Shown here one piece after another: positions 4,945 to 60,865 of a stretch of 64,000 nt of DNA; within the stretch, counting starts at the first letter, position 1, and each line of letters opens with the position of its first letter. The DNA is taken from the NCBI GenBank assembly GCA_050740235.1, contig JBOIDB010000072.1, forward strand, positions 972 to 64,971, written 5' to 3'. Source of the stretch: Gammaproteobacteria bacterium (GTDB lineage Bacteria; Pseudomonadota; Gammaproteobacteria; Steroidobacterales; JACDCP01). Made by a program: the position numbers and the translations under genes. The notes beneath the pieces were generated by a model. That model saw only the letters and a list, made by a program, of their open reading frames with translations. It had not been told where the DNA came from and did not search any database.

Positions 4945-5144
4945 GCGCCATTGTCTCCGTCCCTCTACCGTTTGTCAGTCTTTTCGGAAGGGCGTTCCCG
5001 GTGAGAACTTGTTTTACCGGGTCCCGGCTTTTGCCGGGAAGACGAGGGGAAGTGCGTGCGCCGGGACGACGGTGCAACGAGCCGCCCGGCGATTCGCATC
5101 CCGATCAGCGCCGCAGGCCGTTTCGCGTTAAAGTCCGCCTCTTC

Positions 5145-8537: not shown

Positions 8538-9513
8538 GGCCGTAGCCCTGCAGAAAACCGCAGTGGCCGCCGAAGGTCGTGGTTTCGATGGTCAGACACT
8601 GCGGCGCCTTCAGCCGCCCCGCGTCCGCGAAAGGGATGATCGGATCGTCGATGGCGAGAATGACATGCGACGGCACCGACAGCTCGTCGAGCGCCCCGTC
8701 GACGATGCCGTAGCCTTTCAGATAGGCGGCAAGATCCGCAAACTCCGAATGGTGGCGCACCAGATAGTCCGTCATTTCCGTCAATGTCTTCAGCGCCAGC
8801 AGCTCGCGAAAGTCATAGATACCGGGATGACAGGACTGCTTGAGCTTGAGCGAGCGCTTCCACTTGCCGACGAAATGCAGCCGGTAGCCGAGCCAGCCGG
8901 ATTCGAGCGCCTCGAGCGTGTGCTCGGGATCGAGCACCGGGCAGACCGCGACTACGCGTTCGATGGCGAGATTCGCCTTGCGGGCTCGCGCGGCCACGCG
9001 AAGCGCGAAGTTTCCGCCAAGCGAGAAGCCGGCGAGATAAAGCCGATGCTGCGGAAGCCTGCGGGCGATTGCCTGCACGGCGCCGACGACTTCGTCGAGG
9101 CGGCAGGAATGGAAGACCTCGACGTTCAGGTGATGGCTTGCGCCGTGATCGCGAAGATTCAGCCGGAAGACGTCGAAACCGCGCGCATACAGATGCGCGG
9201 CCGCGGAAAGCTGGTAGGTCGAATCGGCGCTGCCCTCCCAGCCGTGAATGAGCACGACGATGCGAGGGGACATGCCCGACTTCGCGTCTGCGAAATCAGG
9301 CATGTCCCCTTTTGCCTGCGACGCTCCGTGCGAAGGCCCCGCGTAATAACCCTGCAAGCGCACGCCGGCGCCGCAATCGAGCACCAGGGGCCGCGAGGCT
9401 TCGAGGAGCTTGCGCGCTCGACGCATGACGAACGGGCGGCGCAGCCGCATGCTCGCGAGCACCGCCTGCACGTGCGGATTGCGCAGCGCGCGGTTGGGAA
9501 CGAATGGGCTCAA
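8476..9513 (-). CDS. Alpha/beta hydrolase, YheT/ABHD-type
   Basis: VVLIHGWEGSADS, nucleophile elbow GFSLGG, N-terminal F.P.R.L.NPH.Q. TTG start at 9513. The 3' end overlaps the convergent FGGY kinase gene by 62 bp. Confidence 0.8.
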   Translation of the reverse strand: MSPFVPNRALRNPHVQAVLASMRLRRPFVMRRARKLLEASRPLVLDCGAGVRLQGYYAGPSHGASQAKGDMPDFADAKSGMSPRIVVLIHGWEGSADSTYQLSAAAHLYARGFDVFRLNLRDHGASHHLNVEVFHSCRLDEVVGAVQAIARRLPQHRLYLAGFSLGGNFALRVAARARKANLAIERVVAVCPVLDPEHTLEALESGWLGYRLHFVGKWKRSLKLKQSCHPGIYDFRELLALKTLTEMTDYLVRHHSEFADLAAYLKGYGIVDGALDELSVPSHVILAIDDPIIPFADAGRLKAPQCLTIETTTFGGHCGFLQGYGLTSWIDARILDALTSESRSA

Positions 9514-43724: not shown

Positions 43725-43797
43725 AAGGGGTTCCCGGTACCCTTTCTCAGTCGCTCCCCGATATGAGCTTGGTGAGAAAGGGTACCGGGAACCCCTT
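43725..43797 (+). repeat. Family-C hairpin, copy 1 (conserved loop, perfect 24-bp stem)
   Basis: Arms AAGGGGTTCCCGGTACCCTTTCTC (43725-43748) and its exact complement (43774-43797). Loop AGTCGCTCCCCGATATGAGCTTGGT (43749-43773). Starts 19 nt after the mdh stop. Confidence 0.9.
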
Positions 43798-43855
43798 GCC
43801 GGGCGTGATCACCTGCTGATCGTCACGTGGCGGTCGGCAAACGCTCACGCTGGCG

Positions 43856-43927
43856 GAGGAGATGCCTGTGTCCTTTTTCAGTCGCTCCCCGATATGAGCT
43901 TGGTGAAAAGGACACAGGCATCTCCTC
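43856..43927 (+). repeat. Family-C hairpin, copy 2 (same loop, unrelated perfect 22-bp stem)
   Basis: Arms GAGGAGATGCCTGTGTCCTTTT (43856-43877) and its exact complement (43906-43927). The loop (43878-43905) contains the identical core TCAGTCGCTCCCCGATATGAGCTTGGTGA. Confidence 0.9.
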
Positions 43928-43995
43928 GTTTGCATGCGCCTTTTCACCAGGCAAGTATCGGGGAGCGACTGCGAAAGGGTGCAGGGAACCCCTCG
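43924..43995 (-). repeat. Family-C hairpin, copy 3 (inverted, decayed stem)
   Basis: The reverse complement of 43944-43974 gives TCGCAGTCGCTCCCCGATACTTGCCTGGTGA, with the core 21/25 identical to copy 1. The right flank (43973-43995) is 20/23 identical to the copy-1 right arm. The two flanks pair at only ~14/22 positions. Confidence 0.8.
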
Positions 43996-48551: not shown

Positions 48552-48670
48552 GGGGAACGGGGACATTCCTGATTCTCCGGGGGAAATGGGGACATCCCTG
48601 ATTTCCTTGGAAAGGTTCCGGAAATCAGAAAACACTGCATTCTTCGGAAATCAGGAATGTCCCCATTTCC
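48552..48670. repeat. Family-B repeat cluster B1 (two forward units, one partial unit, one reverse unit)
   Basis: Forward units are 48552-48578 (GGGGAACGGGGACATTCCTGATTCTCC) and 48579-48606 (GGGGGAAATGGGGACATCCCTGATTTCC). A partial unit, CCGGAAATCAG, lies at 48618-48628. The reverse unit CGGAAATCAGGAATGTCCCCATTTCC lies at 48645-48670. Consensus GGAAATGGGGACATTCCTGATTTYC. Confidence 0.9.
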
Positions 48671-49826
48671 TCCACGCGCGATCCTGCATGTCGACATGGA
48701 CGCGTTCTACGCGTCCGTCGAGCAGCGCGATGAGCCGTCGCTGCGCGGCAAGCCGGTGCTGGTCGGGGGCGCCGGGCCGCGAGGCGTCGTCGCCGCGGCG
48801 AGCTACGAGTCGCGCGTCTACGGCATCCGATCGGCGATGCCCATGCGCGAAGCGCTGACACGCTGCCCGCACGCGGTCTGCGTGCCGCCACGCTTCGATA
48901 GCTACCGGCGGGAATCGGCGTGCATCTTCGCGATCTTTCACGGCTTCTCGCCCCTGGTAGAGTCGCTCTCGCTCGACGAGGCGTTCATCGACGTCACGGC
49001 GAGTCGCTCGTTGTTCGGAGATGCGGCGGCGATCGGCCGGGCGATCAAGGACAGAATTCGCGATGCGACCCGTCTGAGCGCCTCCGTCGGAATCGGTCCC
49101 AACAAGCTCGTTGCCAAAATTGCGTCGGATCTCGACAAGCCGGACGGCCTGCGCCTCGTCGATGACGACAGCTTGCAGTCGACGCTGGATCCGTTGCCGG
49201 CGCGCGTCCTGCCCGGGGTCGGCCCGCGAGCCGCCGGGCATCTCCGCCGCATCGGGCTGACGACCCTCGGCGAGCTGCGCCGCGCTCCGGCCTCGCGCCT
49301 GCAGCCGATCTTCGGCCGTTACAGCGAGCAGATACGCCAGCGCGCTGCGGGGGTCGACGACCGGCCGGTAGTTCCGGACGCCGCGCGCAAGTCGATCAGC
49401 GCCGAGGAAACCTTCGATGCCGACCTGCCGCAGGGTCCCGAGCTGTCGCGCGAGCTGGCGCGGCTCGCCGATCGCACCGCTGCACGTTTGCGCGCGAGCG
49501 GCCTCGTCGCGGGCTGCGTCTGCGTCAAGATCCGCCGCCCGGATTTCGCCACGTTCACGCGGCGGCGGAGCCTCCATCCTCCGGCCAGCGGATCGCGCCT
49601 CATTCACGGCGCGGCCCGCGAGTTGCTCGGGCAATGGTTCGCTGCCGCGCCAGACGCGAAGCTGAGGCTGCTCGGAGTCGGGGTCGAGGATCTCGAGCCT
49701 GCCGGCCAGGCCGATCTGCTGGCCGCTCTCGGCACGGCCGGGAATGACGCGATAGACGATGCCGTCGACCGGATCCGCGCCCGTTTCGGCGAGGCCGCCC
49801 TCGGCAGCGCCCGCACGCTGCGGTGA
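48657..49826 (+). CDS. dinB: DNA polymerase IV (Y-family)
   Basis: ILHVDMDAFYASVEQRDEPSLRGKPVLVGG...GVVAAASYESRVYGIRSAMP. The only canonical in-frame start upstream of the catalytic HVDMD motif is ATG 48657, which lies inside repeat unit B1c. Confidence 0.9.
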   Translation: MSPFPPRAILHVDMDAFYASVEQRDEPSLRGKPVLVGGAGPRGVVAAASYESRVYGIRSAMPMREALTRCPHAVCVPPRFDSYRRESACIFAIFHGFSPLVESLSLDEAFIDVTASRSLFGDAAAIGRAIKDRIRDATRLSASVGIGPNKLVAKIASDLDKPDGLRLVDDDSLQSTLDPLPARVLPGVGPRAAGHLRRIGLTTLGELRRAPASRLQPIFGRYSEQIRQRAAGVDDRPVVPDAARKSISAEETFDADLPQGPELSRELARLADRTAARLRASGLVAGCVCVKIRRPDFATFTRRRSLHPPASGSRLIHGAARELLGQWFAAAPDAKLRLLGVGVEDLEPAGQADLLAALGTAGNDAIDDAVDRIRARFGEAALGSARTLR

Positions 49827-49864: not shown

Positions 49865-49952
49865 GAGAATCGGGGTCAGACCGGATTTTTCCGAACGGCA
49901 TTCTACGGAGACCAGACGCAGATGGAGAAAATCCGGTCTGACCGCGGTTCTT
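49865..49952. repeat. Family-A inverted-repeat element (copy A2)
   Basis: GAGAATCGGGGTCAGACCGGATTTTTCC (49865-49892) faces GGAGAAAATCCGGTCTGACCGCGGTTCTT (49924-49952). It shares the core AATCGGGGTCAGACCGRGATTT with copy A1 and lies between dinB and exeA. Confidence 0.85.
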
Positions 49953-58884: not shown

Positions 58885-58888
58885 TTCA

Positions 58889-58978
58889 GGGGAAATGGGG
58901 ACATTCCTGATTTTCTGAGCGAAACCAGCACCTCGGCTGTCGAACGATCCCGAAAATCAGGAATGTCCCCAATTTCCC
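58889..58978. repeat. Family-B inverted-repeat element B2
   Basis: GGGGAAATGGGGACATTCCTGATTTTC (58889-58915) faces GAAAATCAGGAATGTCCCCAATTTCCC (58952-58978) across a 36-nt spacer. It starts 5 nt after the FlhC-like stop codon. Confidence 0.9.
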
Positions 58979-59874
58979 GGAAAGCCCCGCCCCTGCCGAA
59001 CGTATTTTCCGGCCTGCACGTCGACCGCGTCGCGCACCGGCGACGGGATTCGGCGTGGATCGAGCGCGCGCTGGTCTCCTCACGCACGCGCTTCGTGCCG
59101 GTACAGGACAAGCTGAGCCTCGTAAAGAACGGCGAGCCGCCTCGCCCGGTCCTTCTCGATCACGATCAGATTGCGCGAGCCGGCCTGCAGGCGGGCTCGC
59201 CGATCTATCTCGGCCGATTCGGCGGGCACGACTGTTTTGCCTGCGCTCTGACCGCCGACGCAGCACCCGCAGCCGACCTCGGTGGCGAGTTTCAGGATCT
59301 GCATCGGGTCGGCGCGCTGCTCGAAACCGCCGACGCCACGCTGCTCGCTTATGCGCGCGCCATGGTGCTTTGGCACCGGAATCACCGGCACTGCGGGCGC
59401 TGCGGCGCGCCGATCGCCATCACCGAAGCCGGCCACGTGCTGGTCTGCTCGGATGAGCAATGCGGCACACAGCAGTTTCCGCGCCTCGACCCTGCGATCA
59501 TCGTGCTGGTCGCGGACGAGGAGCGCTGCCTGCTCGGACGCCAGGCCGGCTGGCCGGCCGGCCGCTACTCGACGATCGCCGGCTTCGTCGAGCCCGGTGA
59601 AAGCCTCGAGGATGCGGTCACGCGTGAAGTTCACGAAGAGACCGGCGTCGAAGTGCGCGACGTGCAATATCATTCATCGCAACCGTGGCCTTTTCCGGCA
59701 TCGTTGATGCTCGGCTTCTCGGCGCGTCCTGCCAGCACGGCCATCGAGCTTCACGACCGCGAGCTCGAGGACGCGCGCTGGTTCACCCGCGAGGAAATCG
59801 CCGCGGGCCGGGCGGGCTTCCCGCCCAAAGTCTCGATCTCGTTTCGCCTGGTCGAGGATTGGCTCTCGTCATAA
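58963..59874 (+). CDS. nudC: NAD(+) diphosphatase / NADH pyrophosphatase (Nudix)
   Basis: Zinc ribbon HCGRCGAPIAITEAGHVLVCSDEQCGTQQFPR. Nudix box GFVEPGESLEDAVTREVHEETGV, then SQPWPFP. ATG 58963 lies inside repeat unit B2b. Confidence 0.9.
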   Translation: MSPISRKAPPLPNVFSGLHVDRVAHRRRDSAWIERALVSSRTRFVPVQDKLSLVKNGEPPRPVLLDHDQIARAGLQAGSPIYLGRFGGHDCFACALTADAAPAADLGGEFQDLHRVGALLETADATLLAYARAMVLWHRNHRHCGRCGAPIAITEAGHVLVCSDEQCGTQQFPRLDPAIIVLVADEERCLLGRQAGWPAGRYSTIAGFVEPGESLEDAVTREVHEETGVEVRDVQYHSSQPWPFPASLMLGFSARPASTAIELHDRELEDARWFTREEIAAGRAGFPPKVSISFRLVEDWLSS

Positions 59875-59914
59875 GTATTGCCGGTGCGGCGGTCGCGAGG
59901 CCGTATTGTCCTAC

Positions 59915-59955
59915 TTCCCTCGAGTCGCTCCCCGATACTCGCTTGGTCGAGGGAG
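59915..59955 (+). repeat. Family-C hairpin, copy 4 (short stem)
   Basis: Core AGTCGCTCCCCGATACTCGCTTGGT (59923-59947) is 22/25 identical to copy 1. It is flanked by TTCCCTCG / CGAGGGAG (8 bp including one G-T pair). Confidence 0.8.
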
Positions 59956-59985
59956 TGGGGGCAATCCGCGACGCCTCGGTGGCAG

Positions 59986-60054
59986 CCGCTTATCCTCATC
60001 TGTTCCGACCGAGCCGGTATCGGGCGGCGAATCGGGACAGATGAGAATAAGCGG
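59986..60054 (-). repeat. Family-C hairpin, copy 5 (inverted, diverged loop, 18-bp stem)
   Basis: Arms CCGCTTATCCTCATCTGT (59986-60003) and ACAGATGAGAATAAGCGG (60037-60054) pair at 17/18 positions. The loop's reverse complement, ...ATTCGCCGCCCGATACCGGCTCGGT..., is ~19/25 identical to the family core. Confidence 0.7.
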
Positions 60055-60091
60055 CCTGCGGCGGATGCAAAAAACTGAATGGAGGGAGGCC

Positions 60092-60865
60092 ATGTGTCTG
60101 CTCGTATTCGCCCTCGACGCACATCCGCGCTACCGGCTCGTCTTCGCCGGCAATCGCGACGAGTATCATTCGCGCCCGACGGATCCGGCCGGCTGGTGGC
60201 GCGATCAGCCGGACGTGCTTGGCGGCCGCGATCTCGAAGCCGGCGGGACGTGGCTTGCCGTGTCCCGCGGCGGCCGCTTTGGCGTCGTCACGAATTACCG
60301 CGAGCTCACCGATGCCGGACCCGCAGCGCGCTCGCGCGGCGCGCTGGTGGCGGATTTCGCCGGCAGCCGGGCGACACCGGCCGAGTTCGGCGCTGCGCTC
60401 GCCGTGAACGCGCACCTCTATGCCGGGTACAGCCTGATTCTCGGCGACCGGGACGGGCTGCATTATTTTTCCAATCGCGCGCCGTCCTTGAGCCCGCTCG
60501 ACCGCGGCGTTCATGGCCTCAGCAATGAGCGGCTGAATACGCCTTGGCCGAAGCTCGAGCGCACGCGCCGGCGTTTCGAGGATCTGCTGGCATCCGGCGA
60601 GCCCGAGCCCGACACGCTGCTCGGGATGCTGGCGGATCGGCAGCCTGCTGCCGATGGCGACCGGCCCGATACGGGCCTCGATCCGGCGCTCGAACGTCTG
60701 CTCTCCGCGCCCTTCGTCGTCAGTCCGAGCTACGGTACGCGCTCGAGCACCGTGGTGCTGGTGGATCGAGCAGACTCGGTGCGTTTCAAGGAACGCCGAT
60801 TCGGACCGGACGGTGAATCGATCGGCGCGAGCGAGTTCGAGTTCCGCAGCGGCGTACCGCAATGA
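60092..60865 (+). CDS. NRDE-family protein (DUF833 / TANGO2-like)
   Basis: ATG 60092 preceded by GGAGGGAGG. MCLLVFALDAHPRYRLVFAGNRDEYHSRPT contains the family's Cys2 and NRDE motif. The track ORF from 59906 is an over-extension through the hairpins. Confidence 0.85.
   Translation: MCLLVFALDAHPRYRLVFAGNRDEYHSRPTDPAGWWRDQPDVLGGRDLEAGGTWLAVSRGGRFGVVTNYRELTDAGPAARSRGALVADFAGSRATPAEFGAALAVNAHLYAGYSLILGDRDGLHYFSNRAPSLSPLDRGVHGLSNERLNTPWPKLERTRRRFEDLLASGEPEPDTLLGMLADRQPAADGDRPDTGLDPALERLLSAPFVVSPSYGTRSSTVVLVDRADSVRFKERRFGPDGESIGASEFEFRSGVPQ

Follow-up and report, generated by a model that had tools for sequence, protein, structure and literature searches.

The two elements found between the nudC gene and the NRDE/TANGO2 gene (copies 4 and 5) are genuine members of a large family of chromosomal, intergenic hairpins; they form an inverted doublet and a chance origin is excluded. 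The family folds on one defined strand, called F here, which is the complement of the strand read in the initial annotation. Its apical tip is under strong purifying constraint, and the sequence of its outer stem is free but constrained to pair. By analogy with known repeats, the family is tentatively read as an extragenic REP/BIME-like hairpin whose strand-specific single-stranded fold, probably of DNA, would have its tip read by a candidate protein, a reading given a little less than an even chance.

The window, i.e., the whole 64-kb stretch of DNA that was analysed, contains five copies, all of them intergenic. The covariance model of the family run over the window with filters off returned exactly five matches (E-values from 2e-16 to 1.4e-9), and the next match, at 18 bits, was merely the opposite strand of copy 1. 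In shuffles of the window, the 25-mer with at most three mismatches was expected 0.00 times. Copies 4 and 5 are located in the spacer between the nudC stop codon (59872-59874) and the ATG of the NRDE/TANGO2 gene (60092). Copy 4 is a decayed hairpin (59902..59968, F on the minus strand; 54.8 bits, E 1.3e-13) with arms at 59902-59923 and 59947-59968 and a 23-nt tip at 59924-59946. Its innermost 8 bp (TCCCTCGA/TCGAGGGA) pair perfectly, complementarity over the whole 22-nt arms is 73% and the folding z-score was between -0.65 and -1.95. The 25-nt core of copy 4 was identical to copy 1 at 22 of 25 positions, as given in the initial annotation, whose 8-bp stem was also confirmed; it matched the family consensus derived from other genomes at 25 of 25 positions and its tip was the same as that consensus.

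Copy 5 is an intact hairpin (59985..60055, F on the plus strand) with 24-nt arms at 59985-60008 and 60032-60055 and a 23-nt tip at 60009-60031. The arms are 92% complementary, with 22 Watson-Crick pairs plus a T·G and a C·A, and the fold is very stable (-48.5 kcal/mol, z = -7.3). The inverted orientation described earlier was correct; the core identity of about 19/25 applied to the comparison with copy 4 (19/25) and not to that with copy 1 (18/25). The inner mini-hairpin of copy 5 does read GCCG-CCCGATAC-CGGC, as first reported, against GCTC-CCCGATAT-GAGC in copies 1 and 2, and its tip represents the CCGA...GAA / GCCG-CGGC variant. The relatedness of copy 5, which the initial annotation had made dependent on the alignment of more copies, was upheld by the family covariance model (56.7 bits, E 3.5e-14).

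Copies 1-3 are grouped at 43725-43994, in the spacer of mdh and an acyl-CoA dehydrogenase (ACAD) gene. Copy 1 (43725..43797, F minus; 64.2 bits, z about -10) begins 18 nt past the mdh stop codon and has a perfect 25-bp stem with the tip at 43750-43772. Copy 2 (43856..43927, F minus; 54.8 bits) has the same tip as copy 1 on a stem whose 22 + 3 bp are interrupted by a single-base bulge and in which 9 of 25 positions differ from copy 1, all of them compensated. Copy 3 (43935..43994, F plus; 41.4 bits, E 1.4e-9) is inverted, with the tip at 43947-43969 and z about 0. In comparison with shuffled sequences, the z-scores of copies 1, 2 and 5 were from -7 to -10, and copies 3 and 4 are decayed. The 3' arm of copy 3 is closely related to the arm of copy 1, and its 5' arm breaks off at a distance of 8-11 nt from copy 2, with loss of the fold, as if copy 2 had been inserted into copy 3 or a partial deletion had occurred. 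A second, unrelated hairpin family was also seen in the window (48579-48673 and 58885-58982, also 49866-49951 and 9265-9310), one copy lying just upstream of nudC. It has arms GGGGAAATGGGGACAT.CCTGATTT and their complement, loops of 36-39 nt and, unlike the family described here, conserved stems; it probably corresponds to families A and B of the initial annotation.

To define the family, a degenerate pattern of the tip was scanned over one public genome per species, which gave at least 115 DNA stretches and at least 139 pattern matches including the five copies of the window, at least 106 of them flanked by inverted arms. At least 91 distinct hairpins were distinguished, with a median stem of 25 bp (range 12-44, usually 23-30 bp) and an element length of 70-110 nt. 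Further copies amounted to at least about 100 in roughly 60 genomes or MAGs and the closest relative has no hairpin at either window locus, in agreement with the earlier view that the family is dispersed and not a local duplication. Among the matches listed, the carriers were Luteimonas, Thermomonas, Arenimonas and Lysobacter (Lysobacterales), many uncultured Gammaproteobacteria, Steroidobacteraceae, several Burkholderiaceae MAGs (Burkholderiales) and one Rhodospirillaceae MAG. The copies listed had one 23-nt apical module placed atop stems of very different sequence. The search pattern prescribed 16 positions of the tip, so that its apparent invariance is partly due to construction; the pattern-free tip positions were also near-invariant, and a covariance-model search recovered variants at some of the pattern-fixed positions as well as a short subtype.

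No match was found by BLAST among 72,556 plasmids and the scan of IMG/VR revealed a single match, devoid of a stem. Loci from unrelated bacteria (330 kb) contained no copy, and a metagenome search with the NRDE protein, serving as a negative control, gave a best relative of 66% identity and no copies. Rfam 15 yielded nothing at the gathering threshold in the whole window, and by E-value only sub-threshold noise of microRNA-type hairpins at both loci. Literature queries with the sequence and with a description of the motif brought up no account of it. The sole exact matches of the NRDE protein, the Logan contigs SRR27067781 (L116, 1-110) and SRR27067780 (L117, 1-125), both stop inside copy 4, which indicates that the repeat breaks short-read assemblies; the start of the Logan contig L117 (CCCCAC...) resembles the other arm folded back.

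Inverted pairs or arrays were detected in about 15 loci, i.e., both window loci and about 13 others. In adjacent copies of opposite orientation, F was almost always on the minus strand in the left copy and on the plus strand in the right one, with two exceptions. Tandem arrays with a 296-nt period were present in Luteimonas; in other MAGs the repeated unit was exactly the hairpin, and in some MAGs the stems were identical throughout a subfamily of several copies. Arrays of three or four members (L043 2999-3564, L055 4920-5633, L074 223-538 and L054 4317-4464) mixed long-tip and short-tip (GNA triloop) subtypes, and the one in L043 was mirror-symmetric (F - - + +). In MAG MFD05684.bin.1.344, the hairpin forms the interior of an about 210-bp MITE of IS5-like look, with GTGTACCCCGCC... 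terminal inverted repeats and CTAG/TAG borders, found in at least six near-identical copies (L009, L030, L068, L083, L109 and L113). Classical GTAG-type REPs (e.g., TGTAGGAGCGGCTTCAGCCGCGA and CTGTGGGAGGGGCGCAAGCCCCGAC) adjoined the hairpins in shared spacers (L006, L019, L031 and L107), showing that both kinds coexist in one genome.

On F, the tip is 5'-CCAAGCGAGUAUCGGGGAGCGAC, with the positions C1 C2 A3 A4 G5 C6 G7 A8, the loop G9 U A U C G G G16, and G17 A18 G19 C20 G21 A22 C23. The 5' side of the element consists of the variable stem ending in A, followed by CC(A/G)A, GC and two pairs, which are either tandem G·A or Watson-Crick. These enclose the 8-nt loop GUAUCGGG or, in the short subtype, a GNA triloop, and the 3' side continues with the matching two pairs and GC, then GA(C/A), U and the second arm of the stem. 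The assignment of the strand came from interior stem mismatches, which on F were G·U in 78 cases vs A·C in 15 (p = 2e-11; 91 distinct hairpins). The TCGC... strand of the initial annotation has A·C 78 and G·T 15, so that the G·U-type wobbles lie on F. When one representative was taken for each of the 53 stem clusters among the 91 hairpins, the counts were 53 vs 11, with 26 clusters leaning to G·U and one in the opposite direction.

The inner pairs 7:18 and 8:17 were G·A/A·G in 75 copies, and this tandem sheared G·A motif is present on F only. Among the 91 distinct hairpins, all 12 copies with a non-majority 3' side had the exact Watson-Crick partner on the 5' side. The inner helix was replaced by CG/CG in nine copies, by UG/CA in three copies and by UC/GA in the window; U·G and U-A intermediates also occurred. 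In the control set of 30 stemless pattern matches, the inner positions paired at random. Moreover, the switch from A3:C23 to G3:A23 was without exception, copy 5 being one case. The selected structure suggested by the initial annotation is thus supported by the constraint on the inner helix. The event it described as a single covariation was real; it turned out to be one of several independent events and to belong to the opposite strand. As a correction to the initial annotation, the majority form seen in copy 4, which it had taken for a lost inner stem, pairs on F as tandem G·A. In the short subtype, the apex is replaced by a 4-bp helix with a GNA triloop closed by C-G and the internal loop CC(A/G)A / GA(C/A) is retained, which makes this loop and the two adjacent G-C pairs the portion common to both subtypes. 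Both motifs found on F only, the tandem sheared G·A pairs and the C(GNA)G triloop, are stable in DNA. Readings of the tip as a K-turn, an IHF site, a CsrA site, a promoter or KOPS were considered by eye and set aside because of misfits at consensus positions.

The outer stem was analysed in 59 representatives, in which the 14 tip-proximal stem pairs were 98.2% paired and 13 of these 14 pairs had changed on both sides. The observed covariation score was reached by 0 of 500 shuffles. The outer stems had been described as unrelated; their sequences do differ, yet they covary very strongly. A loose CCGGGG motif recurs in many Lysobacterales copies at about 12-17 nt from the tip, which marks the stems as homologues that have diverged, as opposed to arbitrary sequence.

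Orthologous copies allowed the turnover of the stem to be followed. The hslV-hslU hairpin is orthologous in three Thermomonas species, the rbfA-truB hairpin in three Burkholderiaceae MAGs and the adk-mpl hairpin in two Thermomonas-type genomes. The flanks of orthologous copies were 85-95% identical and their tips differed at 0-1 of 23 nt, with up to 12 of 26-30 stem pairs differing on both sides. Over all orthologous stems, there were 58 double changes (38 transversion and 20 transition pairs) vs 8 single-sided ones, and some length changes of one arm appear from the alignments to be matched in the other. The copies persisted across species whose intergenic spacers were no longer alignable. 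Since transversion pairs cannot go via wobble intermediates, arm-to-arm copying would act beside selection; such a process is known as quasipalindrome template switching.

The family is gained or lost between close relatives. In the closest relative genome (GCA_020064125.1; mdh 85% identical, gene order conserved), neither the nudC-NRDE spacer nor the mdh-ACAD spacer (142 nt) contained a copy. The nudC-NRDE spacer of this genome has about 72 nt vs 217 nt in the window, and the difference matches the 154-nt doublet; in more distant NRDE relatives the spacers were 8 nt or less. In the mdh-ACAD spacer of GCA_035524935.1 (mdh 79% identical), two strong copies are accompanied by one relic, and their stems are unrelated to those of the window. 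A sequence in the mdh-ACAD spacer of GCA_020064125.1 (L199, about 4985-5010), CCGAGCGAGCTATCAGTGCG, resembles a decayed F tip CCGAGCGAGTATCGGGG; this armless site, unscored by the covariance model, could be the remnant of a copy since lost. The NRDE orthologue of the same genome (L204, about 3878) has ATC at the position of the ATG start in the window and is called 41 codons shorter, which suggests from the sequence another start codon or a damaged gene.

An alternative is that the hairpins are purely selfish, MITE-like palindromes devoid of a host role, in which the tip would look conserved through the recency of the copies and the arms would be kept perfect by replication template switching alone. 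The differences in presence between close relatives, the MAG subfamilies with identical stems, the hairpin inside the IS5-like MITE and the compensation of stem indels and transversions would all agree with such an origin. However, orthologues outlast the alignability of their spacers with 0-1 change in the 23-nt tip, and template switching alone would not let G·U outnumber A·C by 5:1 on one strand. Neither a conserved terminal inverted repeat nor a target-site duplication was seen, the latter being absent from the boundaries of the SG8_30 and KLAP199 copies, and none of the copies was found on plasmids or viruses in the searches described above. A purely selfish nature is therefore considered quite improbable.

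The copies sit in spacers, often 7-40 nt past a stop codon, and some are inside operons (leuD-leuB, leuB-asd, hslV-hslU, rbfA-truB and adk-mpl). Based on strand calls by codon periodicity, F was in the sense of both neighbouring genes in 23 cases (+F+) and antisense to both in 14 (-F-), with 6 cases of +F- and 8 of -F+. An apparent 2:1 orientation bias from a crude ORF-based count disappeared with these better strand calls. Local GC skew showed no association with the orientation of F; both orientation tests refer to codon-periodicity calls and GC skew over 8-kb pieces and not to annotated complete genomes. On these data, there is no clear dependence of the orientation of F on the neighbouring genes. 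No gene class was common to the copies. Where copies 0.5-2.5 kb apart could have flanked a REPtron-like gene, they enclosed ordinary genes (leuB, an H+-pyrophosphatase and an M28 peptidase).

The location past stop codons and within operons could be explained by a cis-acting role in the carrier mRNA, with the stem blocking exonucleases or serving as an RNase III target and the tip binding an RNA-binding protein. In favour of this role, RNAs typically show covariation together with G·U wobbles and tandem G·A pairs, the stability of the hairpins is very high (z from -7 to -10), and wherever both flanking genes of an orthologous set were conserved (four sets), F was in the sense orientation inside an operon. 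On the other hand, in 14 of the 37 tandem contexts both neighbours ran antisense to F, and the G·U bias of these contexts was 8:0; copies 1, 2 and 4 of the window present the non-F strand to the mRNA; the GNA triloop of the short subtype is a DNA-type stable loop; and the copies have no gene class in common. The RNA reading implied by the initial annotation is accordingly not favoured, given the orientation data and the strand bias that persists antisense to both neighbours. As an account of the whole family it is possible but somewhat unlikely, and for the F-sense copies in operons an RNA role is a serious rival.

A strand-specific constraint independent of neighbour orientation would also be expected if each hairpin were an independent small-RNA gene with its own promoter on F. 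Against this, the repeat unit does not extend beyond the hairpin foot, outside of which the flanks were not conserved, and the sequences upstream are unrelated from copy to copy; the copies of doublets are 11-16 nt apart, which leaves no space for promoters; the consensus scan of 59700-60250 detected no promoter-like site; and no U-tract follows the stem. Small-RNA genes of this kind are therefore very doubtful. Stable GC-rich hairpins downstream of genes may also suggest intrinsic terminators of transcription, or palindromes arisen by chance. However, the 3' flank was C-rich without a T-run, the scan of 59700-60250 found no terminator-like site, the copies occur within operons and a near-identical 23-nt loop is not a terminator feature. 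Chance palindromes are contradicted by the shuffles (0.00 expected) and by the covariance-model E-values, and this whole explanation is hardly credible.

Among known systems, REP, BIME and REPIN elements show the closest likeness. The family shares with them the extragenic, multi-copy and chromosomal palindromes, the organisation in inverted pairs and tandem clusters, the presence or absence among related genomes, the function tied to one strand and the absence or rarity on plasmids. REP palindromes are preceded by a conserved tetranucleotide, usually GTAG (PMC8266576); in the family, GTAG was lacking (0-1 of 84 copies) when the 12 nt beside each foot were inspected on both strands. REPs are 20-50 nt long with conserved stems, whereas the elements described here have 70-110 nt and highly variable stems, also within one genome, as the stems of window copies 1, 4 and 5 differ. 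The family shows an inverted conservation, with a near-invariant tip and a free foot, and its tip is common to Gamma- and Betaproteobacteria, whereas REP sequences are lineage-specific. The elements thus fall outside the definition of a REP.

The attC sites of integrons, recombination-type sites set by the fold of one DNA strand with free sequence and located just after coding sequences, resemble the family in being defined by the fold of one strand and by structure over sequence. In attC, the R''/R' boxes (RYYYAAC / GTTRRRY) are conserved at the foot and the tip is variable, whereas in the family the reverse was found, with an unconserved foot. Moreover, attC sites form co-oriented arrays by an integrase gene and the family is dispersed in either orientation in the spacers of core genes, e.g., hslV-hslU and leuB-asd. 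Correia/NEMIS, ERIC and RUP elements, MITE-type repeats transcribed together with the adjoining genes, are likewise dispersed intergenic long hairpins, able to alter mRNA processing. MITEs keep terminal inverted repeats and target-site duplications, in contrast to the variable arms seen here, and the family does not conform to them even though in one MAG the hairpin lies inside an IS5-like MITE. The subterminal hairpins of IS200/IS605 and the nick sites of HUH Rep proteins are strand-specific single-stranded DNA hairpins read by a protein, and rolling-circle origins have a conserved loop on a variable stem. The family differs from the IS200/IS605 and HUH Rep systems in the lack of an adjacent tnpA or rep gene, in its far longer stems and in that no guide or cleavage motif was identified.

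The favoured reading as a REP/BIME-like hairpin acting through a single-stranded fold of DNA draws on three observations: the constraint tracks the motif and not transcription, the flanks are promoterless, and the DNA-stabilising motifs are on F only. The active form would be the F strand folded into a single-stranded DNA hairpin, which replication or repair would extrude or expose. A trans-acting protein may read the conserved module of the internal loop and tip, akin to TnpAREP, which recognises single-stranded REP and not inverted REP (PMC8266576). The inverted doublet would place one F hairpin on each DNA strand. The complementarity of the arms could be kept by selection on the fold, probably helped by quasipalindrome template switching. 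Counting against DNA, an RNA would account equally well for the G·U wobbles, the tandem G·A pairs and the covariation, the four orthologous sets are F-sense and the +F+ class (23) is slightly above -F- (14). In REPtrons, a single-copy gene of TnpAREP (RAYT, a domesticated Y1 HUH transposase) is usually flanked by REPs; a limited tblastn search with a RAYT query gave no match in the window or in 198 loci of about 8 kb each.

A variant of the DNA reading, regarded as unlikely, would make the hairpins a distinct host-resident single-stranded DNA class of Gamma- and Betaproteobacteria, with a dedicated reader that is not, or is only distantly, a RAYT and with arms regenerated or corrected by self-templated synthesis on F. 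Such fold-back or template-switch synthesis would explain an evolution of the stem that is neutral or faster, with hardly any unpaired intermediates, and also the G·T-only spectrum of mismatches on one strand.

The family belongs to the extragenic-palindrome kind, with an unusual architecture and stem dynamics. As a widespread structured family, it would join the short list of bacterial extragenic repeats, with a layout, an invariant tip on a free stem, that is the reverse of REP and attC. The conserved module points to a candidate partner conserved across classes. The orthologous copies constitute a natural experiment in which long palindromes stay paired during sequence turnover, and the turnover of the stem is relevant to mutagenesis at quasipalindromes and to how fast compensatory evolution proceeds. 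The copies located in core operons (hslVU, leuCDB-asd and rbfA-truB) may affect their expression.
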